64,000 nucleotides of DNA from positions 4,854 through 68,853 of the forward strand of contig JBFLYD010000009.1 of NCBI GenBank assembly GCA_040756905.1, written 5' to 3'. The translations under genes and the position numbers were made by a program. The notes under the pieces were generated by a model, which was not told the DNA's origin, searched no databases, and was given only the letters and a program-made list of their open reading frames with translations. Below, in pieces: positions 9,642-57,465 of this stretch (the first letter of the stretch is position 1; every line of letters begins with the position of its first letter). The DNA comes from Acidobacteriota bacterium. GTDB lineage: Bacteria; Acidobacteriota; Aminicenantia; JBFLYD01.

Positions 9642-9714
9642 TGGAGCTGAGGGGATTTGAACCCCCGACCTCATGACTGCCAGTCATGCGCGCTCCCAGC
9701 TGCGCTACAGCCCC
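9642..9714 (-). tRNA. tRNA-Ala (anticodon GGC).
   Basis: The reverse complement GGGGCTGTAGCGCAGCTGGGAGCGCGCATGACTGGCAGTCATGAGGTCGGGGGTTCAAATCCCCTCAGCTCCA folds by hand into a cloverleaf. Acceptor 7 bp, D-arm GCGC/GCGC, anticodon stem CATGA/TCATG with loop CTGGCAG, T-arm GGGGG/CCCCT with TTCAAAT. The G3:U70 Ala identity pair is present. CCA is not encoded. Confidence 0.9.
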
Positions 9715-33329: not shown

Positions 33330-34982
33330 ATGGATAAAAATTTCAATTCAGAGAAGAGAAAATCCTTAAATTTTCTTTTAAATAAAAAATACAAACATAA
33401 AATTGTAATAATTCTTTCAATCCTTTGCTTTCTTTATTTTTGCCCTGGAATTATCTACTCAGAAGAGAAGAAAACCCTTCCACCAAAATACAAAAAATGG
33501 CTCGATGAGGAAGTAGTTTACATTATAACACCAAAGGAGAGGGAGATATTTTTAAAACTTGAATCTGATGAAATGAGGGATAAATTTATTGAGGAGTTCT
33601 GGAGACAGAGAGACCCAACATCTGGAACTCCAAAGAATGAATTTAAAGAGGAACATTACAGAAGAATAGATTATGCAAATAAATGGTTTGGAAGGCACGC
33701 CTCAAGACCTGGATGGATGACTGACCAGGGAAGAATATATATAATATTGGGAGAACCAATTGAGAGGAAAAGGTTCGATGCAGAACAAGAGGTTTATCCG
33801 TGCGAGTTATGGTTTTACTCTGGAGATGTAAGACTTGGTCTTGAACCTTTCTTTTATATACTTTTTTATAGAAGATTTGGAGCAGGAGAATATAAACTTT
33901 ACAGCCCAACGGTCGATGGAAGAGAAAGATTGATTAAAGATGAAATCTTGTTAACAGAACCGGTTCTAACAAAGTTAAAACGCGATTTCGATCCCTTACA
34001 TAAAATAGATTATGACCTCTATTTAGCATCACTATCTCTTATACCACAACCAGGAGGAAAGATAAAAAGTCCTATGGAATCGGATAAATTGCTAGCAAAC
34101 ATTCCACTTTATCCTCATAAGCTCATAAAAGATGAATATGTAGATGAATTCTTAAAGACTGAAGGAAAGGTGGAGGTAGATTACTCAGTAAATTTAATCT
34201 CAGGAACACTTCAAACAGAAATGATAGAAGATGAAAAAGGAAACTATTTTCTCCACTACTCATTTTCCCCAAAATCCCTCTCTTTAATCTCCTATGAGGA
34301 TAAATACTCCGCCCACTGGAGAGTAAACGGAACAATTAAAACTCAGGATGGAAAAACAACATACCAGATAGATGAAGAATCTTCAATTGAGCTTACAAAA
34401 AAAGACATAAAAATAGCAAGAACACATCCTTTCTCCTATGAAAGTTTTCTGCCCCTTTCTCCGGGAAAATATATACTGAATATTCTCTTTCAGAACACAG
34501 TCTCAAAAGAATTTGTTCCCTTTGAAAGGGTAATCCTCATAGAGGATAAAGAAGAAAGAATAAACAACTTGGTATTAGGATATGATATAAAAAAAGATAC
34601 TGAAAAGGATGTAAAAAAACCATTTAAAATAGATAATCAGAGAATCTATCCTTCAATTGAAAATTTATTTTCAGAGAAAGATAAACTCATCATATTCACC
34701 CAGCTAAGGAAAAAAGAAGGATATGAGGAGAACTTGAAATTAGTGCTTAAGATAAACAAATCTGATGAGGCTTTATGGAGAAAAGATTTAGAGATCTGGG
34801 ATACTCCTTCTCTTTTAAATGTATTTGAATCGCTCTCTCTTGAGAAATTCTCTCCTGGAAAATACACAATAATTGTAACTTTTTTTAAAAAAGAAAAGGT
34901 AATTGATTCAAAGGAGGAGGAGTTTTCAATACAGAAAGAAAGAGTTCCCAGACAGTGGATAATTTCAAAAATCTGGAAATAA
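33330..34982 (+). CDS. GWxTD domain-containing protein.
   Basis: N-terminal TM/signal, then WRQRDP...RPGWMTDQGRIYIILGEP containing the GWxTD motif. 550 aa. Confidence 0.65.
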   Translation: MDKNFNSEKRKSLNFLLNKKYKHKIVIILSILCFLYFCPGIIYSEEKKTLPPKYKKWLDEEVVYIITPKEREIFLKLESDEMRDKFIEEFWRQRDPTSGTPKNEFKEEHYRRIDYANKWFGRHASRPGWMTDQGRIYIILGEPIERKRFDAEQEVYPCELWFYSGDVRLGLEPFFYILFYRRFGAGEYKLYSPTVDGRERLIKDEILLTEPVLTKLKRDFDPLHKIDYDLYLASLSLIPQPGGKIKSPMESDKLLANIPLYPHKLIKDEYVDEFLKTEGKVEVDYSVNLISGTLQTEMIEDEKGNYFLHYSFSPKSLSLISYEDKYSAHWRVNGTIKTQDGKTTYQIDEESSIELTKKDIKIARTHPFSYESFLPLSPGKYILNILFQNTVSKEFVPFERVILIEDKEERINNLVLGYDIKKDTEKDVKKPFKIDNQRIYPSIENLFSEKDKLIIFTQLRKKEGYEENLKLVLKINKSDEALWRKDLEIWDTPSLLNVFESLSLEKFSPGKYTIIVTFFKKEKVIDSKEEEFSIQKERVPRQWIISKIWK

Positions 34983-35057: not shown

Positions 35058-35453
35058 TTATTTTTTGTGAACGGAGACATAAACTTTTCTTGTGCGTGGA
35101 CCATCGAATTCGCAAAGAAAAATTCCCTGCCATGTTCCAAGCGCCAGCTTGCCATCTTTGACCAAAATAATTTCAGATTGACCTAGAATGCTTGCTTTTA
35201 TATGGGCTGGAGAATTTCCTTCTCCATGGCTGTATGGAGCATTGTCAGGAACAATTTTTCTAAGACCATAGAGAATATCCCTTACAACATCAGGGTCAGC
35301 ATTTTCATTTATCGTAATCCCTGCAGTTGTATGAGGTATAAATACTATACAGAGTCCTTCCTTAACCTCATCTTCTGAAATTGCTTTCTGGACAAGAGGA
35401 GTTATATCCACAAACTCTTCTTTTGCCCTTGTTTTGACTTCAAGTATTTTCAT
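35058..35453 (-). CDS. YjbQ-family protein (UPF0047; secondary thiamine-phosphate synthase-like).
   Basis: 131 aa with CIVFIPHTTAGITINENADPDV...HIKASILGQS, typical of YjbQ. Confidence 0.8.
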   Translation of the reverse strand: MKILEVKTRAKEEFVDITPLVQKAISEDEVKEGLCIVFIPHTTAGITINENADPDVVRDILYGLRKIVPDNAPYSHGEGNSPAHIKASILGQSEIILVKDGKLALGTWQGIFLCEFDGPRTRKVYVSVHKK

Positions 35454-35587
35454 CTGTCAATAATTTTAATTTTTTTCACTTCATTAATAAATTATATCTC
35501 CTGAAATACAATTAAGTACCCTTTGATAAAAAAATTTTATATGAATATTTCTAAAAAATGAAGTTTTAATTAATATTTTTATGTTTA

Positions 35588-35616
35588 TTGACATCAATTT
35601 TTTGCTTTGATAAAGA
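35588..35616 (+). promoter_or_regulatory. Candidate sigma70-type promoter for the aldehyde dehydrogenase gene.
   Basis: TTGACA, 17 nt spacer, TAAAGA. A GGAGGAGGA RBS sits before the ATG at 35653. Confidence 0.3.
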
Positions 35617-35652
35617 CTAAATATGTAATCTCCCTTTAGAGGAGGAGGATAA

Positions 35653-37017
35653 ATGATCCTGCAATCTATTAATCCTGCTAATGGAAAATTAATTGCTACC
35701 TTTGAGGAACATTCTTTAGATGAGATAAGAGAAAGTACAGGAAAGACCTGGGAGGCATTTCTTCTATGGAAAGAAACATCTTTCAGGGAGCGAAGCAATT
35801 TAATGAAAAAAGTTGCGTATCAATTAAGAACACATGGGGAGCATTATGGAAGAATTATAACCGAGGAGATGGGTAAACCCATTATCCAGTCCATTGCTGA
35901 GGTAGAAAAATGCGCCTGGGTGTGTGAGTACTATGCAGAGAATGCAGAAAGATTTTTAAAGGATGAACTGATAGAAACTGATGCGAGCAAGAGTTACGTT
36001 TGTTTTGAACCCCTGGGTGTTATTCTTGCTATAATGCCATGGAATTTCCCTTTCTGGCAGGTATTCAGGTTCGCAGCGCCGGCATTGATGGCTGGCAATG
36101 TGGCCCTTTTAAAGCATTCTTCTAACGTCCCGCGTTGTTCTTTAGCCATAGAAGAAGTATTCCAGAAAGCTGGCTTTCCACCCCATCTCTTTACAACTTT
36201 GTTGATAAGTTCAGAGAAGGTAGGAGATGTCATAAAGGATGATAAGATCAAAGCAGTAACTCTTACTGGCAGTGAAGATGCTGGAAGTAAGGTAGCAGAA
36301 ATAGCAGGCAGGGAGATTAAGAAAACTGTTCTGGAATTAGGGGGAAGCGATCCGTTCATAATCCTTCATGATGCAGATGTTAATGTTTGTGCCAGTGTAG
36401 GGACTCAGGCCAGAACGACCAATACAGGACAGAGTTGCATCGCTGCCAAGAGATTTATTGTAGTTGAAGAACAGGCCAAAGAGTTTGAAAGACTACTTAC
36501 CGAGAATATTGAAAAGTTAAAGGTTGGTGACCCTCTGGATAAAAATACTCAGATTGGACCCCTTGCCCGGAAAGACCTGCTACTGGAGTTAGATAAACAA
36601 GTCCAGGATTCCATAGCTCAAGGAGCAAAACTCCTGACCGGAGGAAAAAGGTTGGATAGACCTGGATTCTATTATGCTCCTACAGTTCTGACAGATGTAA
36701 GGGAAGGTATGCCGGTTTATAGAGAGGAAACCTTCGGTCCAGTTGCGGCTGTTATCAAGGTAAGGGATGAAGAGGAAGCTATCAGGATAGCTAACGCCAC
36801 ACGGTTTGGCCTGGGAGCCAGTCTATGGACAAAAGACTTGAAAAAGGCTGAAGAGTTAGCAAGGAAGATTGATTCAGGAATGGTTTTTATTAATGCTATG
36901 GTAAAATCAGACCCACGCCTGCCCTTTGGTGGAGTTAAGAAATCAGGCTATGGCCGGGAATTGTCCCATTATGGGATTAAAGAATTTGTAAACATTAAGT
37001 CAGTATGGATTGCTTAA
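35653..37017 (+). CDS. NAD(P)-dependent succinate-semialdehyde dehydrogenase (Sad/YneI-type aldehyde dehydrogenase).
   Basis: 454 aa collinear with E. coli YneI as recalled: MPWNFPFWQV, VLELGGSDPFI, catalytic Cys in QSCIAAKRF, and EETFGPVAAV. Also NTGQSC and GGVKKSGYGRELS. Confidence 0.85.
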   Translation: MILQSINPANGKLIATFEEHSLDEIRESTGKTWEAFLLWKETSFRERSNLMKKVAYQLRTHGEHYGRIITEEMGKPIIQSIAEVEKCAWVCEYYAENAERFLKDELIETDASKSYVCFEPLGVILAIMPWNFPFWQVFRFAAPALMAGNVALLKHSSNVPRCSLAIEEVFQKAGFPPHLFTTLLISSEKVGDVIKDDKIKAVTLTGSEDAGSKVAEIAGREIKKTVLELGGSDPFIILHDADVNVCASVGTQARTTNTGQSCIAAKRFIVVEEQAKEFERLLTENIEKLKVGDPLDKNTQIGPLARKDLLLELDKQVQDSIAQGAKLLTGGKRLDRPGFYYAPTVLTDVREGMPVYREETFGPVAAVIKVRDEEEAIRIANATRFGLGASLWTKDLKKAEELARKIDSGMVFINAMVKSDPRLPFGGVKKSGYGRELSHYGIKEFVNIKSVWIA

Positions 37018-37043
37018 CCTTTATACCTTATCGTCAACTTTTT

Positions 37044-37092
37044 TGACAATGAGCCGATGATTCCTTGACAATGAATTTTATCAGGTTATATC
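37044..37092 (+). promoter_or_regulatory. Candidate promoter with duplicated TTGACAATGA boxes upstream of the amidohydrolase operon.
   Basis: ttgacaatga at 37044 and at 37065, then a 16-nt spacer and TATATC. RBS AAGGAGGGGG before the ATG at 37146. Confidence 0.35.
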
Positions 37093-37145
37093 ATTATTTT
37101 TTTTCATACTTTATATTTAATGCAAAATCTTAAGAAGGAGGGGGT

Positions 37146-38897
37146 ATGAAGATTCCTTCATATATAAAAATGTTAGTTCTTTTGTGTATTTGTTTTTTTA
37201 TTTTAGTTAATGGCTATTCAGCCCGAGCAGACGAGGTAATAGCTATTAAAGGTGGAAAAATTTTTACTGTGACAAAAGGAATATTAGAAGATGGAACTGT
37301 AATTTTGAAGAATGGGTTGATTGAAGCTGTTGGAAAGGACATTCCTATCCCTGCTGGAGCCAAAATAATAGAAGCAAAAGATTTATACGTATATCCAGGA
37401 TTGATTGATTCCCATTCCACAATTGGAATCTCAGAGATAAAACCAAAGGCAGAAGAGGTTCCACCTTCTGGTCAGCCAATTGAAGAGAGAGAAAAAATAG
37501 AACCTTTGAATGCAGATAAGTTTGTAATTGACAGTTTGAACCCAAAAGCTCCGAACATATCAACAGCAAGAAATTTAGGTATTACAACAACGTTGTCAGC
37601 ATTAGCCCAGGGAGTTTTCACGGGTCAGAGCGCGATAATAAATTTAGCTGGAGAAACTCCTGGAGAAATGCTTCTAAAATCTCCTGCAGGTATTAATCTT
37701 GAATTTAACATGTTAAGAGGGGCGTACCCTTCAACATTGATGGGTGTTTTAGCTTTTATCAGACAGACTTTTATTGATGCTGATTATTATCAGAAAGAAT
37801 GGGAGTATTACAACAAATACAAAAAAGGGATAAGAAGACCTGTTTATAACAAACCTCTTGAGTCTCTTCAATCAGCTTTAAACAGAAAAATGCCAATAAT
37901 TTTTTCAGTAAACAAAGAAAATGACATAAAAAGATCTATCAAAATTGCGAAGGAATTCAATTTAAACTATCTATTGAGCGGAGTTACAGAGGGGTGGAGA
38001 GTTTTAGATTTATTAAAGAAAGAGAAAAGACCTGTATTGTTAAGCCTTAATTTTCCAGAACCAAAAGATACAACTGGATACAGTTTTCTTTTGAAGGTTG
38101 ACCTTCCGATTGAAAAAGAGGAAAAGCCAAAAGAAGAAAAAAAGCCTTCCATAAAGAAAGAGGCAAAGGAGGAGAAAAAAGAAGAGGAGAAGAAAGAAGA
38201 CGAGGAAATTTGGAAGCTTATTTATGGAAATGCAGCTTCCCTTCACAAAGCAGGGATTAAGTTCGCCTTTACTGGATATGGGTTAAAACAGTACGGAGAT
38301 ATCATGAAGAATGTGTCAAAGGCAATCGAGAATGGATTGCCTGCGGAAGAAGCTCTTAAAGCATTTACAATTTATCCAGCTGAGATATTCGGAATCTCTG
38401 ACCAGGTTGGAAGCATTGAAAAAGGGAAGATAGCAAACATAGTGGTTACAAAGGGAGAGTTGTTTCAAAAAGATACAACTTTAAAATATTTATTTATCGA
38501 TGGAAAAGAGATTGAAGTTAAAGAAGCCGTGAAAAAAGAGGGAATCAAGCCACCCACGGTTGATGTAACAGGAACATGGAATGTTTCAATAATGTCCCCA
38601 GGGGGTGAGATGTCTGCTACGATGACTCTTACTCAATCAGGGTCTGATGTATCAGGAGAGTTTAAAAGTCAGATGGGAATAACACAGATAAGTAATGGAG
38701 TTGTGAGCGGAAATGAAATCAGTTTTTCAATACTTATTCCAACGACTGACCCACCGATGGAAGTTTTTTTCTCTGGAAAAGTAGAGGGAAATTCTATAAC
38801 TGGGACGATAGACCTTGGACCAATGGGCACTGCAGAATGGAAAGCAACCCGTCCAGGCAATTTAAATTTACTTTTTGAAAGTGCTGGAAATAATTAA
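37146..38897 (+). CDS. Secreted amidohydrolase-family protein with an internal K/E-rich insertion and an extra C-terminal domain.
   Basis: Signal peptide, then IKGGKIFTVTKG...ILKNGLIEAVGKD...PGLIDSHS (metal-binding HxH region). [32 protein letters not shown] insertion. The C-terminal roughly 130 aa are not present in the two paralogues. Confidence 0.7.
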   Translation: MKIPSYIKMLVLLCICFFILVNGYSARADEVIAIKGGKIFTVTKGILEDGTVILKNGLIEAVGKDIPIPAGAKIIEAKDLYVYPGLIDSHSTIGISEIKPKAEEVPPSGQPIEEREKIEPLNADKFVIDSLNPKAPNISTARNLGITTTLSALAQGVFTGQSAIINLAGETPGEMLLKSPAGINLEFNMLRGAYPSTLMGVLAFIRQTFIDADYYQKEWEYYNKYKKGIRRPVYNKPLESLQSALNRKMPIIFSVNKENDIKRSIKIAKEFNLNYLLSGVTEGWRVLDLLKKEKRPVLLSLNFPEPKDTTGYSFLLKVDLPIEKEEKPKEEKKPSIKKEAKEEKKEEEKKEDEEIWKLIYGNAASLHKAGIKFAFTGYGLKQYGDIMKNVSKAIENGLPAEEALKAFTIYPAEIFGISDQVGSIEKGKIANIVVTKGELFQKDTTLKYLFIDGKEIEVKEAVKKEGIKPPTVDVTGTWNVSIMSPGGEMSATMTLTQSGSDVSGEFKSQMGITQISNGVVSGNEISFSILIPTTDPPMEVFFSGKVEGNSITGTIDLGPMGTAEWKATRPGNLNLLFESAGNN

Positions 38898-38905
38898 AAG
38901 GAGAG

Positions 38906-40237
38906 ATGAAAATGGGAAAAAATAAATCAAAATATATTTTATTTATTGTATTTATTTTATTTTCATTTTTTTGGGTAAGAGCAGAAGAAAAATCAGCCGG
39001 TGATAACCTTTTTATTTCTAAGGGGACTATTCTTACGATTACAAAGGGAAAGATTGAAGGTGGTTCTATTTTGATAAAGAATGGAAAAATCTTTGCAGTT
39101 GGTAAAGATTTAAAGCCACCTGAGGGAATTAAAATTATCGATGCAACAGGTAAGTATGTAATGCCAGGCATAATCGATTCCCATTCTCACATGGCAATCG
39201 ACAGAGGAATAAATGAATCAACTTCTCAGGTAACTCCCCAGGTAAACATTCAGGATGTGATAAAACATGATGACATTGCGATATACAGAGCACTGGCAGG
39301 AGGAACCACCTGCGTTCAACCTCTTCATGGAAGTGCAAATGTAATTGGAGGACATAATGCTGTTATAAAACTAAAATGGGGGAAGCCGCCTGAAGAACTT
39401 TTAGTTAAAGATTCAATGCAGGGAATAAAATTTGCCCTCGGAGAAAATCCAAAGAAGTCTAATTTTCCTATGCCCAGAGGCCCTGAATTTCCCAATACAA
39501 GAATGGGGATAGAATTTGTTATAAGAGATTCTTTCAATCATGCTTTAGAGTACATGAAAAAATGGGATGAATACCAGAAGAAAAAGTCATCTTTAAAGAA
39601 GGGAGAAATTCCACCCCTTCCCCCAAAAAGAGATTTAAAATTAGAAGCACTGGCTGATATATTAAAAAGAAACCTTGGGATCGTTTGCCATGGATACAGA
39701 GCTGATGAACTTTTGATGATGCTTAAAACTGCAGATGAGTATGGAGCAAAGGTTGTCTCTTTTGAACATTGTCTTGAAGGATACAAAGTTGCCGATGAGA
39801 TTGCAAAACATGGAACAGTTGCCTCGATATTTGCTGATAACTGGGCTTATAAAATCGAAGCTTTTGATGCAATTCCCTTCAATGCAGCCATTCTTACAGA
39901 AAGAGGAGTTGCTGTAACAGTTAATTCAGATTCAGATGAAAGAGTGAGGAGACTCTATCAGGATGCGGCAAAAACCATGAAGTATGGAGGATTAAGTGAA
40001 GAAGAGGCTCTCAAAACAATTACAATAAATCCTGCAAAGATGCTCGGAATTGACCACAGATGTGGAAGTATTGAGGTTGGGAAAGATGGAGATTTGGCTA
40101 TTTTTAATGGACATCCCTTGAGCGTCTATTCAAAAGTTTTGATGACGATAATTGAGGGAGAGGTTTATTTTGACATAGAAAAAGCTATAACCGCTGAAAA
40201 AGCCCTTGCGATGGCTAAAGAAAAAGAGAAAAAGTGA
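38906..40237 (+). CDS. Secreted amidohydrolase-family protein (paralogue).
   Basis: KGTILTITKGKIEGGSILIKNGKIFAVGKDL...PGIIDSHSHMAIDRG. 443 aa. Confidence 0.75.
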   Translation: MKMGKNKSKYILFIVFILFSFFWVRAEEKSAGDNLFISKGTILTITKGKIEGGSILIKNGKIFAVGKDLKPPEGIKIIDATGKYVMPGIIDSHSHMAIDRGINESTSQVTPQVNIQDVIKHDDIAIYRALAGGTTCVQPLHGSANVIGGHNAVIKLKWGKPPEELLVKDSMQGIKFALGENPKKSNFPMPRGPEFPNTRMGIEFVIRDSFNHALEYMKKWDEYQKKKSSLKKGEIPPLPPKRDLKLEALADILKRNLGIVCHGYRADELLMMLKTADEYGAKVVSFEHCLEGYKVADEIAKHGTVASIFADNWAYKIEAFDAIPFNAAILTERGVAVTVNSDSDERVRRLYQDAAKTMKYGGLSEEEALKTITINPAKMLGIDHRCGSIEVGKDGDLAIFNGHPLSVYSKVLMTIIEGEVYFDIEKAITAEKALAMAKEKEKK

Positions 40238-41559
40238 GGTGGAAGATGAAAGGAAAAATTTCTATTAAATTCATTGGATTATTATGCTTTCTTTTAATAC
40301 TGATAAATTATGTTTATTCGGAAGGCAATAAGGGATATGCGATTGTAAATGCATATATTTTCCCGGTGACATCGGCTCCGATTGAAAATGGTATATTGCT
40401 TATTAAAGACGACAAAATTGAAGCAATAGGAAAGGATTTGGAAGTTCCAGAAGGGTATGAAATAATAAATGCAAAAGGTCTATATGTTTATCCAGGGCTA
40501 ATTGATTCCTCCTCTTTTCTCGGTCTTTCTGAAATAGGTTCTGTTCGAGCAACAGTTGATACCTTTGAAATTGGAAATTTTAAGCCCCATATAAAAGCTG
40601 AGGTTGCGATAAATCCCCATAGTGAGTTAATTCCAGTTACAAGGGTTAATGGAATTGCAACTGTTCTTGTTTCTCCGAGAGGAGGCACGATAGCAGGACA
40701 GAGCGCTCTTGTAAACTTAATAGGCTGGACTCCTGAAGAGATGGTGTTGAAATCTCCAGCTGCCATTCACATTTCATATCCAAGAGTTATTGAGAGAAGG
40801 AGATTCGGAGCTCCAGGAGAAAAGCCCCAGGACGAAGCAGTGGCTCAAAAGCAATTGAAAGAATTGAAAGAATTTCTGGATAGAACAAAAAGATACATTG
40901 AAATCTGGGAAGCATACAATAAGGATAAAAAAGGCTCAATTCCTGAAAAAGACTTGATCCTGGAAGCTATGGCTCCTGCGTTAAAAGGAGAAATTCCTGT
41001 TGTAATTTCTGCAGATAAAGTAAAGGAGATAAAAGGAGCAATAGAACTTGCTGATGGATATAAAATGAAGCTCATTCTGAGTGGGGCATCTGAAGGCTGG
41101 AAGTGTGCAAAATTTATAGGAGAAAAAGGTGTTCCGGTGATACTCAGCTCTCTATTTTCTCTTCCGGGAGAAAAGGAACCTTATGATGCAATATACGCCA
41201 ATGCATCAATTCTTAATAAAGCAGGGGTAAAGGTAGTATTTTCCACTGAAAGCGCAAGCGATGTAAGAAATCTTCCCTATCAGGCTGGAACTGCCTCTGC
41301 CTATGGGCTTCCAAAAGAAGAAGCCCTGAAGGGCATAACGATATATCCTGCTGAAATTTTCGGGGTTCAGGATAAAATTGGGAGCTTGGAGAAAGGGAAA
41401 ATAGCCAACATAATTTTGACAGATGGAGACCCTCTGGAGATGAGAACACAAACAAAACATCTTTTTATAAAAGGGCAGAAACTTCCTCTTACAAGCAAGC
41501 ATATCGAACTGTATGAGAAATTCAGAAAAAGACCTTCCATAAAGTTTTTTAGCCGATAA
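40234..41559 (+). CDS. Secreted amidohydrolase-family protein (paralogue).
   Basis: AYIFPVTSAPIENGILLIKDDKIEAIGKDL...PGLIDSSS. 441 aa. Overlaps the previous gene by 4 nt. Confidence 0.7.
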   Translation: MRWKMKGKISIKFIGLLCFLLILINYVYSEGNKGYAIVNAYIFPVTSAPIENGILLIKDDKIEAIGKDLEVPEGYEIINAKGLYVYPGLIDSSSFLGLSEIGSVRATVDTFEIGNFKPHIKAEVAINPHSELIPVTRVNGIATVLVSPRGGTIAGQSALVNLIGWTPEEMVLKSPAAIHISYPRVIERRRFGAPGEKPQDEAVAQKQLKELKEFLDRTKRYIEIWEAYNKDKKGSIPEKDLILEAMAPALKGEIPVVISADKVKEIKGAIELADGYKMKLILSGASEGWKCAKFIGEKGVPVILSSLFSLPGEKEPYDAIYANASILNKAGVKVVFSTESASDVRNLPYQAGTASAYGLPKEEALKGITIYPAEIFGVQDKIGSLEKGKIANIILTDGDPLEMRTQTKHLFIKGQKLPLTSKHIELYEKFRKRPSIKFFSR

Positions 41560-41797
41560 AAAATTTGAGCAGCAAGAGTGACTTCGAAAACACGCTGTAT
41601 TTTCCCCAGTCCCGCACTAACTTATTATTACCTAAGTTAAGGAATTCATAATATCTCTACTCCCATCACTTAATTTTTTTGGAATAAATACAGTTAGTGC
41701 GGGAGCATTCATGCTTCGCTCTTCTCCTGAGTAAACTCAGGAGAAACCATGCCCGCTCCACATTCGTGACGGTTTTCTCGCCACCCTTGCTGCTCAG
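41560..41797 (+). mobile_element. Repeat family R1, full copy (about 238 bp), MITE-like, with roughly 25-bp imperfect terminal inverted repeats (GCAGCAAGRGTGACTTCGAAAAC ... GTTTTCTCGCCACCCTTGCTGC) and internal palindromes.
   Basis: Left end aaaaatttgagcagcaagagtgacttcgaaaacac and right end cgtgacggttttctcgccacccttgctgctca. Internal cccgcactaact/agttagtgcggg and ctcctgagtaaactcaggag palindromes. Copies and fragments at 44698-45013, 42826-42867, 23001-23061 and 13072-13107. Confidence 0.6.
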
Positions 41798-41899
41798 TAA
41801 AATTAGAGTAATTTCTGGTATATAATGAAATAATTGATTCCATTTTTTTATCATAAAATAAAATTGACGGAGGGAAGATAACACAGGTAAAATTGCAGG

Positions 41900-42817
41900 A
41901 TGGGAGAATGGCTGAGAGGAGATTTATTAGCTGAAGAAATTAAGGCAGAAATTCAGAGAGGATTAGAATCCTATAAGGAAAAAATCAAAAGGCCTCCTTA
42001 TTTAGTTGGAATTTTAATAGGTGAGAACCCCTCATCAAAAATTTATCTTAACATAAAAAAAAGGGAATGCGAGAAAATTGGAATCAAGTCAGAGATTGTA
42101 AAATTTTCTGAAGATGAAACAAGGGAAAATATATTAAATAAAATCAATGAATTGAATGATAATAGAGCGATAGATGGAATTCTGGTTCAGCTTCCAATCC
42201 CTTCTCATCTTGATACCCTTGAAATAATAAGTGCTTTAAGCCCTGATAAAGATGTGGATGGTTTTCACCCTGATAATGTTAGTAGAATATTCTATGCAAA
42301 GCCAGGGTTCAGACCTTGCACTCCTTTTGGAATTTTAGAGCTATTGAAAAGAAACAACATAAAGATAGAAGGAAAGAGGGCAGTTATAATAGGAAGGAGC
42401 TTTATCGTTGGAAAACCTTTAGGGTTGATGTTACTAAATGAGAACGCCACTTTGACTTTCTGCCATTCAAAGACAGAGAACTTAAAAGATGTGACAAGTT
42501 CTGCTGATATATTAATTGTGGCAATCGGGAAACCATGCTTTGTCAGAAAAGATTTTGTTAAACAGGGTGCTGTTGTTGTAGATGTCGGAATTAATCAGAT
42601 AACAGATTTGGCTGAGTTTAAAAGAATTTGTGGAGATAATGAGAAAAAAGAAGTTCAGATTAAAGAAAAAGGCAGCACTCTTGTTGGAGATGTTCACCCT
42701 GAGGTGATAGAAAAAGCTTCATTCCTTACCCCTGTTCCAGGAGGAGTTGGACCTTTAACAGTTGCAATGCTTTTAAAAAATACCTGGGAATCCTTTAGAA
42801 AAAGAGAAAATTTATAA
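41900..42817 (+). CDS. folD: Bifunctional methylenetetrahydrofolate dehydrogenase/methenyl-THF cyclohydrolase FolD.
   Basis: N-terminal YLVGILIGENPSSKIY, GILVQLPIP and PVPGGVGPLTVAMLL. Confidence 0.85.
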   Translation: MGEWLRGDLLAEEIKAEIQRGLESYKEKIKRPPYLVGILIGENPSSKIYLNIKKRECEKIGIKSEIVKFSEDETRENILNKINELNDNRAIDGILVQLPIPSHLDTLEIISALSPDKDVDGFHPDNVSRIFYAKPGFRPCTPFGILELLKRNNIKIEGKRAVIIGRSFIVGKPLGLMLLNENATLTFCHSKTENLKDVTSSADILIVAIGKPCFVRKDFVKQGAVVVDVGINQITDLAEFKRICGDNEKKEVQIKEKGSTLVGDVHPEVIEKASFLTPVPGGVGPLTVAMLLKNTWESFRKRENL

Positions 42818-55572: not shown

Positions 55573-57465
55573 ATGAATAATCAACTCGTTGAAGTTGCCC
55601 TTCCTTTACCAATAATAAATAATTTCATATATAAAGTGCCTGAAGATTTAAGGGATAAAGTTTCAACAGGAAAAAGGGTGAGGGTTTCTTTTAAGAACAG
55701 GCATTATACAGGATTCATAGTGAATTCCTCACCAGAACAGACCATCTCAGGAGAAATAAAAGAAGTGGAAGAAATCATAGATGATGAGGTATTGATAACA
55801 GAGGATGTTTTTCTTATGTGTAAAAAAGTTTCAGAGTATTTTTTTTGCAGCTTAGGAGAATTGTTATCTTCGATACCTTTGTCTAATAGAAAGGCAGAGT
55901 TTAAAGACCTTTCCAGATCAGAAAATCTCGAACTTAAAAGAATTCCAGATATTTTAATAGAATTTCTTAAGGAAAAAAAACCTTTATTAATAAAGGGGTC
56001 TCGGGATGAAAGAATAAATATGTATATAGCCCTTGCAATTAATGAAGTAGAAAAAGGGAAAAATGTCTTGATCCTATTTCCTGAGGTTTCTGATCTTGAA
56101 TACTTTGAAGAAATAATTAGACCTCAAAGACTCAAGACTTCATTTATTTCCGGAAAATTAAGCAAGAGGAAAAAAGAAATTGAATGGGTTGAGATAAAAA
56201 ATGGAATGAGAACCATTATTTCAGGAACATTTCCTGTTCTTTTTTATTCTATCCCAAATTTATCTCTGATAATAATCGATGGAGAAGAGGGTCTTTCTTA
56301 CATAAAACAGAACAGTCCAAAATATAATATAAAAGAAGTTGCTTTTATTAAAGCTCAGCTTATGAACTCCTCAATTATCCTCGGCTCTGATTCACCTTCT
56401 GTGGAATCCATTTTTAAAGTAAAAAGAAAAGATTTTTCTTTCTACGAGCTTGACAATGACAGAAAGAAATCTTTAAGGGTCAAATTTTTGAGGTCTAAAA
56501 AAGTAATATCTGATGAATTAAAAAACGAAATAGATAAAAATCTTAAGCAAAAAAATAAGATGATTTTTTTTGTTAACAGGAAGGGCTTGGGAAGTTTTTT
56601 GGTCTGCAATAATTGTGGTTTCATAAAGAATTGTAAAAATTGTAATATTCCCCTTCGTTTTCATCAGGAGAATTTATTAATATGTCATTTTTGTGGATAT
56701 TCAGAAAATGTGGAGAGATTATGTCCTGGATGTAAATCAAAATTGAGAGCAGTTGGATGGTTTGGAACTGAGAGGGTCTACCATGAATTGAAATCAATTT
56801 ATCCGGAAAAGAAAATAGAAATTTTAGACCTCGAAAGATGTAGAAGTAAGAAAGCTCAGAACAAGATATGGCAAGAATTTCTTTACAATAATACAGAGAT
56901 AATGATTGGAACTCAATTAATTTTAAGTTATAAGCATTTTGATAGGATTAGAATTCCTCTATTAGTGCTCCTGAATCCTGAATCAAGTCTATCTTTTCCA
57001 GATTATAGGTTTTCAGAAAATACTTTTCATATAATTGATAAATTACTTCTTTCAGTTGAAGATGAAGGAAAGGTAATAGTCCAGAGCAGTGGACATCTTC
57101 ATTACAGTATAATTTCTCCTCTTTCATTCAACAATGATTTATTTTATAAAGAAGAGTTATTATATAGAGAAATTATGCAGTATCCTCCCTTTTTCTCAAT
57201 TGTCAAATTATTAATTCCAGGAAGGAAAAGGAGAAGTATTGGCACAAAAGCCAGAAAAATATTGGAAACAATAAAAATACATGAAAATGGGTTTAAAGTT
57301 TATGGTCCAAATTTCGCTCCGATTTCCAAATTAAAAGGATTATGGAGGGTTCAGCTGATTTTAAAAGGAGATATAACTGAGATAAGGAAATTTCTCAGAG
57401 AGAACATCGATGTATTCTTAAAGGAAAAAATCAACATCGAGATAAATCCTCTCTCCACTCTCTGA
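55573..57465 (+). CDS. priA: Primosomal protein N' (PriA) homologue with degenerate ATPase/helicase motifs.
   Basis: Collinear with PriA. N-terminal 3' DNA-binding-like region and an intact Cys-rich zinc motif (CNNCGFIKNCKNCNIP...CHFCGY...CPGCKS). Walker A GVTGSGKT is replaced by IKGSRDER, DEEH by DGEE, SAT by SDS, and QxxGRAGR by QSSGHLH. Confidence 0.7.
   Translation: MNNQLVEVALPLPIINNFIYKVPEDLRDKVSTGKRVRVSFKNRHYTGFIVNSSPEQTISGEIKEVEEIIDDEVLITEDVFLMCKKVSEYFFCSLGELLSSIPLSNRKAEFKDLSRSENLELKRIPDILIEFLKEKKPLLIKGSRDERINMYIALAINEVEKGKNVLILFPEVSDLEYFEEIIRPQRLKTSFISGKLSKRKKEIEWVEIKNGMRTIISGTFPVLFYSIPNLSLIIIDGEEGLSYIKQNSPKYNIKEVAFIKAQLMNSSIILGSDSPSVESIFKVKRKDFSFYELDNDRKKSLRVKFLRSKKVISDELKNEIDKNLKQKNKMIFFVNRKGLGSFLVCNNCGFIKNCKNCNIPLRFHQENLLICHFCGYSENVERLCPGCKSKLRAVGWFGTERVYHELKSIYPEKKIEILDLERCRSKKAQNKIWQEFLYNNTEIMIGTQLILSYKHFDRIRIPLLVLLNPESSLSFPDYRFSENTFHIIDKLLLSVEDEGKVIVQSSGHLHYSIISPLSFNNDLFYKEELLYREIMQYPPFFSIVKLLIPGRKRRSIGTKARKILETIKIHENGFKVYGPNFAPISKLKGLWRVQLILKGDITEIRKFLRENIDVFLKEKINIEINPLSTL

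Follow-up and report, generated by a model that had tools for sequence, protein, structure and literature searches.

The gene triad and its metal ligands

The window analysed here, that is, the whole stretch of 64,000 nucleotides (nt) from contig JBFLYD010000009.1 of an Acidobacteriota bacterium, holds three co-directional open reading frames (ORFs) between positions 37146 and 41559, hereafter genes A, B and C, the products of which all belong to the amidohydrolase superfamily. This assignment, made in the original prediction from the letters of the DNA, is borne out by bit scores above the Pfam gathering cut-offs for both PF01979 Amidohydro_1 (A 51.1, B 64.4, C 51.1; cut-off 25) and PF07969 Amidohydro_3 (A 41.1, B 74.3, C 35.3; cut-off 29.7), and the N-terminal beta-sandwich and PG(L/I)IDS region then said to be shared by the three proteins are confirmed by alignment. 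The A protein is 100% identical to a protein of a metagenome-assembled genome (MAG) of Acidobacteriota at NCBI, as are B and C to theirs, and all three carry the name 'amidohydrolase family protein'. The genes and their metal-ligand positions, as read from the alignment of the three proteins with each other and with Protein Data Bank (PDB) entry 3OOQ, are as follows (all on the + strand; aa, amino acids):

37146-38897, +: gene A, ORF of 583 aa; predicted exported pseudo-amidohydrolase with a degenerate core and a C-terminal beta-barrel
37407-37421, +: degenerate HxH of A, D88-S-H90-S-T92, second His replaced by Thr (alignment with B and 3OOQ)
38906-40237 (or from ATG 38912), +: gene B, 443 aa (441 aa); predicted exported, catalytically competent amidohydrolase
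39176-39190, +: intact HxH of B, D-S-H93-S-H95 (alignment with A, C and 3OOQ, and orthologues)
39425-39937, +: remaining ligands of B, K175 (IKFALGENPK), H262 (VCHGYRADE), H288 (FEHCLEGYK) and D342 (NSDSD), aligned to K, H, H and D of 3OOQ
40234-41559 (GTG; or from ATG 40246), +: gene C, 441 aa (437 aa); predicted exported pseudo-amidohydrolase, no extra domains
40504-40518, +: degenerate HxH of C, D-S-S93-S-F95, both His residues gone (alignment)

The metal motif of the amidohydrolase superfamily is D-x-H-x-H, and 3OOQ, which reads PGFVDAHSHIGL at this place, supports a register in which B has DSHSH, A has DSHST and C has DSSSF. The third copy had been suspected early on to be non-catalytic, which holds, although the HxH register was then set one position off and C in fact loses both His residues; the first copy, DSHST, had not been flagged as dead, and the earlier view of three enzymes has to give way to one in which only B keeps the full HxH/Lys/His/His/Asp set. 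The catalytic HxH of the superfamily at the end of beta-strand 1 is present in B and missing from A and C, and the residues that define the binuclear subtype, namely the bridging Lys after beta4, the beta5 His, the beta6 His and the beta8 Asp, can all be assigned in B by alignment. These four are absent from A and C, the columns of K175, H262, H288 and D342 being occupied by E, S, G and Y in A and by S, S, G and E in C. Having no conserved ligands, A and C are members of the superfamily by fold and sequence, not catalytic members.

A scan with degenerate patterns of one genome per species, 185,579 species genomes in all, returned at least 530 related loci, the best 80 of which were analysed and yielded 78 orthologues of A, 79 of B and 75 of C. 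Inspected copy by copy, the ligands tell the same story throughout: H93, H95, H141, K175, H262, H288 and D342 are all invariant in the B orthologues, and in those of A and C the ligand columns vary freely, bar a near-universal Gly at the position of the beta6 His (71 of the 75 C orthologues). In A the first HxH position is taken by F, Y, N, T or H and the second by S, D, N or T; 120 database homologues of A show no conservation of the ligand columns, the beta6 His column being Gly in all of them. B is also the most conserved of the three overall, with a mean pairwise identity between orthologues of 55.5% as compared to 47% for C and 41% for A, and with 73 near-invariant positions, many of them polar, against 40 in A and 43 in C, which are mostly Gly, Pro and Ala. 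The three proteins of the window share 29-34% pairwise identity and are hence old paralogues; recent duplicates with identical active sites and a frameshifted C-terminal segment, the outcome against which the original prediction had set itself, do not fit this identity, the unequal ligands and the conserved barrel of A described below. Within a genome, A and C share 33% identity with each other and 24-26% with B, and this closer kinship of A and C is consistent with an active site that was lost once, before A and C arose by duplication. Judged from sequence, B is very probably a metallo-amidohydrolase competent for catalysis, and A and C are very probably inactive in the canonical sense; A and C can be regarded as ancient pseudoenzymes, still constrained and not decaying.

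A full-length match to Amidohydro_1 is obtained for B only (positions 1-343 of 345), A and C matching just the last 80-110 positions of the model. None of the NCBIfam equivalog models comes near its cut-off for A, B or C (best 47-70 bits versus 225-700), and the sub-threshold matches are confined to the N-terminal beta-sandwich or a C-terminal segment. Among them are NF051886 for Xaa-Pro dipeptidase and Cc2672-type carboxypeptidase (47-55 bits for the three proteins, cut-off 500), TIGR01224 for imidazolonepropionase HutI (B 60, A and C 37 bits, cut-off 298) and TIGR02033 for D-hydantoinase/dihydropyrimidinase (B best with 62 bits, cut-off 393); the models for dihydroorotase, allantoinase, and adenine and other deaminases are likewise far under their cut-offs for all three. 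The Xaa-Pro dipeptidase, imidazolonepropionase and deaminase functions proposed earlier are thus not reached by any of the three at a curated NCBIfam cut-off.

The best PDB sequence match of all three proteins is 3OOQ from Thermotoga maritima MSB8 (phmmer E-values of 1.1e-61 for B over residues 36-422, 1e-47 for C over residues 38-416, i.e., its full length, and 1.9e-33 for A in two segments). In structure, too, the B half of a natural A-B fusion orthologue, as modelled, comes closest to 3OOQ (Foldseek template modelling (TM) score 0.89, 36% identity), so that similarity in both full-length sequence and fold places the triad in a 3OOQ-like subgroup. 3OOQ displays the same HxH/K/H/H/D set as B, and its entry comprises 10 chains listed as a dihedral homo-oligomer; one catalytic chain thus builds the whole particle, in contrast to the three diverged chains of the present system, two of which lack the metal site. 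The signal-like N-termini and the beta-barrel domain are further features in which the system of the window differs from 3OOQ. As a structural-genomics entry with function unassigned, 3OOQ gives no substrate for B. The next structural neighbours of the B half, 3FEQ/3N2C, 3MKV, 3MTW and 2QS8, follow at 16-20% identity and TM scores of ≈ 0.56-0.62. These neighbours are members of the cog1228/MEROPS M38 group, with the prolidases Sgx9260b and Sgx9260c, the L-Arg/Lys carboxypeptidase Cc2672, the aminoacylases and ochratoxinase, which belongs to the same superfamily and has the same binuclear ligand set as B. The substrates of these relatives are dipeptides or N-acyl amino acids, and their oligomers are octamers or dodecamers (PMC11511702). 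They are homo-oligomers with no pseudoenzyme partners, unlike A-B-C, and in view of this difference, of the 16-20% identity and of the failure with NF051886, neither cog1228/M38 membership nor a substrate can be transferred to B.

Accessory segments of protein A

Two segments set A apart within the triad:

38106-38207, +: K/E-rich low-complexity insertion of A, aa 321-354, 79% Lys plus Glu, in the loop after the barrel strand LLSLNFP
38541-38894, +: C-terminal domain of A, eight-stranded antiparallel beta-barrel of calycin/streptavidin type, the barrel proper at about aa 476-568

The insertion of EKEEK type had been noticed before with a length of 32 residues; it is there, and it measures 34. 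The segment from LNFP to LHKAG that contains it is longer in the closest clade (P0002-P0024; 47-93 aa) than in all other A orthologues compared (31-33 aa), and the K/E stretch is a real, in-frame, clade-specific loop of variable length. Its variation in both length and sequence makes a disordered loop likely. The equivalent loop in the AlphaFold2 (AF2) model of the A-B fusion P0029, which is described below, follows strand E313-316, and by homology the K/E loop would lie on the face expected to hold the active site.

The extra C-terminal domain, absent from B and C, had been put at roughly 130 aa and stands at about 110 aa; the accompanying suggestion of a cell-wall anchor was rejected, since there is no anchor motif or family and the fold is that of a soluble barrel, and a frameshift as the origin of the extension was rejected because the barrel is conserved in most A orthologues. 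The isolated barrel is modelled with a predicted local distance difference test (pLDDT) score of 89 as eight antiparallel strands, in agreement with Foldseek, and it has an invariant G-x-W at its start and GT(K/R)xP at its end, which we take to be a calycin signature. Calycin/streptavidin-like barrels are recognized by an up-and-down topology of eight antiparallel strands and by the packing of a first-strand G-x-W on a basic residue near the C-terminus, and the C-terminal domain of A answers to this description. Known barrels of this kind (the effector barrel of Cap15, PDB 7N34; avidins; fatty-acid-binding proteins; the exclusion domain of cathepsin C) share 10-22% identity with that of A, and no ligand-binding residues can be transferred from them. 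A Pfam search with the domain returned no family at threshold.

A profile search of 1.84 billion cluster representatives matched the barrel in 10,729 proteins at E ≤ 1e-3 and in 161 at 1e-30. The top matches consist of two to eight tandem copies, many of them of nothing else (P0361-P0509 are among the matches), and the barrel also occurs at the C-terminus of an M16 peptidase (P0469), in TPR proteins (P0413, P0440), in other amidohydrolases and beside a penicillin-amidase fragment (P0365). Within the A family itself it is kept in most orthologues, a Gly/Pro-rich linker preceding it in other lineages; the copy number varies, with two tandem barrels in P0073 and L016 (7869-10139) and none in the A-B fusions and in the unfused orthologues L037, L045, L057 and L067. 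The barrel is therefore considered an accessory, mobile, extracytoplasmic module that may plausibly serve in binding, gating or docking.

A predicted assembly of one enzyme and two pseudoenzymes

Among the 80 loci analysed, A, B and C are separate genes in that order in 73, and two more (L044, L074) have an A-B fusion followed by C; in the remaining loci the triad is truncated by the end of the contig (four) or the locus stops 852 nt past B (one). The order A-B-C therefore holds in every locus that can be judged, and intact ORFs of A and C are present wherever the contig allows. The carriers are Acidobacteriota (Blastocatellia, Pyrinomonadaceae, Thermoanaerobaculia, Aminicenantes, Terriglobia, Acidoferrum) and Gemmatimonadota, together with a few MAGs labelled otherwise, some of them doubtfully. 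In addition, the same triad, with 558/459/439 aa and 562/439/431 aa, is present in MAGs labelled Xenobia and KSB1. Typical triads were also seen in co-assembly MAGs labelled Heliobacteriaceae, Heliomicrobium or Eubacteriales (L006, L012, L026, L028, L030, L045), labels that may be wrong given the resemblance of these triads to the acidobacterial ones. When the neighbourhood was searched for a clue to a pathway, no conserved neighbour was found in more than 11 of the 80 loci, spurious antisense ORFs within the triad aside; the genes seen there are lineage-specific housekeeping genes (MutS2, Ada, HAD, AsmA, acyl-CoA dehydrogenase, histidine kinase). Of 77 A-to-B junctions, 35 offer a start codon in a 4-nt overlap with the preceding stop, as do 42 of 75 B-to-C junctions. 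A search of the literature available for the analysis found no paper describing the A-B-C triad, and the arrangement seems not to have been described before.

Natural A-B fusions are represented by four full-length proteins (P0029, P0032, P0035, P0120) in addition to the loci L044 and L074. They are built from an A core, a low-complexity linker of 30-70 aa and mature B, the signal region of B being replaced by the linker; nine further proteins, truncated at contig ends, have the same A-B junction with different linkers. These fusions are Rosetta-stone evidence that A and B work together. The fusion P0029 was modelled with AF2 from an alignment in which truncated A cores were placed on the N-terminal half and 12 B orthologues on the C-terminal half, the placement being checked. 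The model has a mean pLDDT of 82 and a predicted TM score (pTM) of 0.79, with 119 of the 959 residues disordered (linker 449-514 and termini). As a pTM of ≈ 0.5 would be expected for two independent halves of about 430 residues each, the value suggests a confident relative placement of A and B.

From these observations a mechanism can be outlined, and we consider it the best explanation and a probable one: the triad would be an operon of one live enzyme and two pseudoenzyme partners that assemble with it. The self-contained operon A-B-C, with a probable promoter of its own at about 37065, would encode three exported members, paralogous to each other, of the 3OOQ-like amidohydrolase branch, with B as the sole enzyme, bearing the binuclear-type set of HxH, bridging Lys, two His and Asp. 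A and C would share a common ancestor with B, would have lost the metal site long ago and would since have been kept as pseudoenzymes by purifying selection. In the periplasm the three would assemble into a hetero-oligomer derived from an ancestral homo-oligomer, in which B would hydrolyse an amide bond, A and C would serve as structural or substrate-handling subunits, and the tethered calycin-like barrel of A would act as a module for binding, gating or partner docking. Since 3OOQ is a dihedral oligomer and the cog1228/M38 enzymes form octamers or dodecamers, a hetero-oligomer descended from a homo-oligomeric ancestor is the simplest reading. That A and B, and perhaps C, form a physical complex appears fairly likely from the fixed synteny, the 4-nt overlaps, the A-B fusions and the pTM of the AF2 model. 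As to the substrate of B, a small peptide or an N-acyl-amino-acid amide may be guessed, with low confidence, to be the most likely class.

Several points weigh against this mechanism. The case for physical assembly is indirect throughout, and C, with orthologues of about 420-490 aa, has never been found fused. Only 13 rows of the P0029 alignment are covalently paired, so the docking may reproduce a learned homodimer interface, and pTM is the sole measure by which the placement of A against B was judged. The absence of the barrel from L037, L045, L057 and L067 means that it is dispensable; the signal peptides of all three proteins are read from hydropathy; the phylum labels of the carrier MAGs may be unreliable; and the guess at a substrate class leans on distant relatives (16-20% identity, TM ≈ 0.6).

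The alternative that survives best, though we regard it as rather unlikely, holds that A and C are non-catalytic and yet form no stable complex with B, acting instead in the periplasm as substrate- or product-binding proteins, as chaperones for the maturation of B or its metal insertion, or as regulators or inhibitors of B. Loss of the ligands and synteny fit this, the lack of any fusion of C to B favours it, and a generic binding role would suit a barrel that is mobile and also found in proteins with no amidohydrolase part. The repeated A-B fusions and the confident two-domain AF2 model, however, point to a fixed physical association, at least of A and B, and the 4-nt overlaps suggest coupled translation and balanced amounts of the subunits. 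Far less probable is a set of three secreted enzymes with different substrates, in which A and C would rely on an unconventional metal ligation or a metal-free mechanism. All three proteins do exceed the Pfam thresholds, one of the two HxH histidines is retained by A in this genome, and A and C are under selection; but the Pfam match of A and C is confined to 80-110 residues at the C-terminal end, none of the six canonical ligand positions has a conserved residue across the orthologues of either, the very His retained here is F, Y, N or T in most A orthologues, and the near-invariant Gly, Pro and Ala of A and C stand against dozens of invariant polar residues in B. A decay of A and C as duplicates, with the C-terminal extension as an assembly or frameshift artefact, might be suggested by the lost catalytic residues and the low-complexity insertion, but it is extremely improbable and effectively refuted by the comparative data, as A and C are intact at every judgeable locus in several phyla at 41-47% mean identity, the barrel is conserved in most A orthologues with its pLDDT of 89, and the K/E insertion is in frame with counterparts of variable length in the sister clade.

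One live enzyme with two pseudoenzyme partners, the reading preferred here, has precedents of two kinds. Non-catalytic amidohydrolase folds are known as partners in the inactive dihydroorotase-like PyrC' of the aspartate transcarbamoylase of Pseudomonas and in the CRMP/dihydropyrimidinase-like proteins. As in A and C, the amidohydrolase fold is kept in PyrC' and the CRMPs, the metal ligands are lost and selection is for a non-catalytic role. CRMP chains do occur among the weak PDB matches of A and B, but A and C show no sequence relationship to PyrC' or the CRMPs closer than the superfamily level; moreover, these proteins pair with non-homologous partners or act alone, whereas here the dead paralogues adjoin the live one in an operon of fixed order, with fusions to it in some lineages. 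In the heterodimeric M16B peptidases, on the other hand, two neighbouring paralogous genes, of which only one retains the catalytic motif, contribute to one particle. The logic of live and dead partners is the same as in A-B-C, the fold and the chemistry are unrelated, and the likeness is one of analogy only; it may be added that the M16 peptidase P0469 carries the barrel module of A at its C-terminus. Both pseudoenzymes of the amidohydrolase fold and pairs of active and inactive paralogues being known already, the triad may be seen as a variant on these. A wider proposal, which we put forward tentatively and with more doubt than confidence, would be a hitherto unrecognized periplasmic hydrolase particle spanning phyla, a pseudo-symmetric hetero-oligomer of one live and two dead paralogues, in which the dead subunits and the barrel control access of the substrate to the one kind of active site, in the manner of cathepsin C with its exclusion domain or of M16B peptidases with their inactive subunit, and in which the barrel defines a large family of extracytoplasmic repeat domains (more than 10,000 cluster representatives) for which no Pfam model attains its threshold.

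In the source records the triad proteins are named 'amidohydrolase family protein', 'imidazolonepropionase-like amidohydrolase' or 'D-hydantoinase' only, names which hide that two of the three genes cannot be enzymes of that kind. Recognizing the triad corrects the annotation at no fewer than 530 loci in the scanned set of 185,579 species genomes and offers a clear bacterial case of pseudoenzyme paralogues beside a catalytic sibling in a well-studied superfamily. It also implies that B together with A and C, not B alone, is the unit to express in the search for the substrate of the 3OOQ-like branch, and it draws attention to a widespread beta-barrel module with no Pfam model. Acidobacteriota and Gemmatimonadota, to which most carriers belong, are abundant and poorly cultured soil groups, and a conserved exported hydrolase there could, speculatively, bear on the turnover of organic nitrogen.

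Gene starts, export signals and surroundings

The following elements were read upstream of A and at its N-terminus:

37043-37052, +: first TTGACAATGA box, exact match; weaker promoter-like TTGACA-18-GACAAT (10/12)
37065-37094, +: second TTGACAATGA box with TATCAT; TTGACA-18-TATCAT, an 11/12 match to a sigma-70-like consensus
37135-37144, +: Shine-Dalgarno-like AAGGAGGGGG, read from the sequence directly 5' of the A ATG
37146-37229, +: predicted signal peptide of A, MKIPSYIKMLVLLCICFFILVNGYSARA|DEV; maximum 11-aa hydropathy 3.58, cleavage placed by an AxA-like SARA motif

The TTGACAATGA box had been described as duplicated upstream of the genes, which is confirmed by the copies at 37043 and 37065; the decamer occurs three times in the window as compared to 0.23 copies expected by chance. 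The site at 37065, downstream of the stop of the preceding aldehyde dehydrogenase ORF at 37017, is the best sigma-70-like site in 35400-42200 as a consensus match, and it is probably the best promoter candidate for the A-B-C operon. The third exact copy of TTGACAATGA, at 56450-56459, lies within a 630-aa ORF (55573-57465); a chance occurrence is more probable for it than a shared regulatory box.

The genes had been thought to overlap. A and B are in fact separated by 8 nt between the A stop and the first B ATG, and an overlap of 4 nt between B and C exists only with GTG 40234 as the C start, which is doubtful: both the spacing from the ribosome-binding site (RBS) and the gene models at NCBI speak for later starts, at ATG 38912 in B and at ATG 40246 in C, the latter preceded by the RBS GAGGTGGA. 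With the downstream ATG for C, the gap between B and C becomes 8 nt and the apparent overlap disappears in this genome. The spacers A-B and B-C in the window amount to 8-14 nt, each with an RBS. The mechanically derived ORF starts of B and C (38906 and 40234) disagree with the NCBI models.

Signal-like N-termini had been noticed in all three proteins, and the observation stands: when hydropathy is taken as the maximum over 11 aa, each of A, B and C has a basic start, a hydrophobic stretch (3.3-3.6) and a small-x-small motif. A hydrophobic N-terminus is found in 86-100% of the orthologues of the three, all A orthologues being comparable. Judging from these N-termini, the A-B-C system is probably periplasmic.

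Further observations concern the surroundings of the triad. The operon region 36001-42000 has a guanine-plus-cytosine (GC) content of 0.37-0.39, versus 0.28-0.36 over most of the window, with positive GC skew, which may be ordinary coding-strand composition. Upstream, a 550-aa ORF at 33330-34982 (+) has a hydrophobic N-terminus and the motif RPGWMTDQGR, which we take to be a GWxTD-domain signature. Over the whole window, only a tRNA gene at 9642-9714 (-) reaches the gathering threshold of an Rfam family. Between the stop of C and a folD-like ORF at 41900, the segment 41565-41797 (+) is GC-richer and contains nested inverted repeats, namely a 15-nt closing stem, a perfect 13-nt pair and an 11-nt hairpin, with a folding energy of -77.7 kcal/mol (z = -7.1 versus shuffles). 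It matches no Rfam family and has no repeat elsewhere in the window; an elaborate terminator is one candidate for its role, and a leader for the gene downstream or a structured RNA so far unannotated are others.

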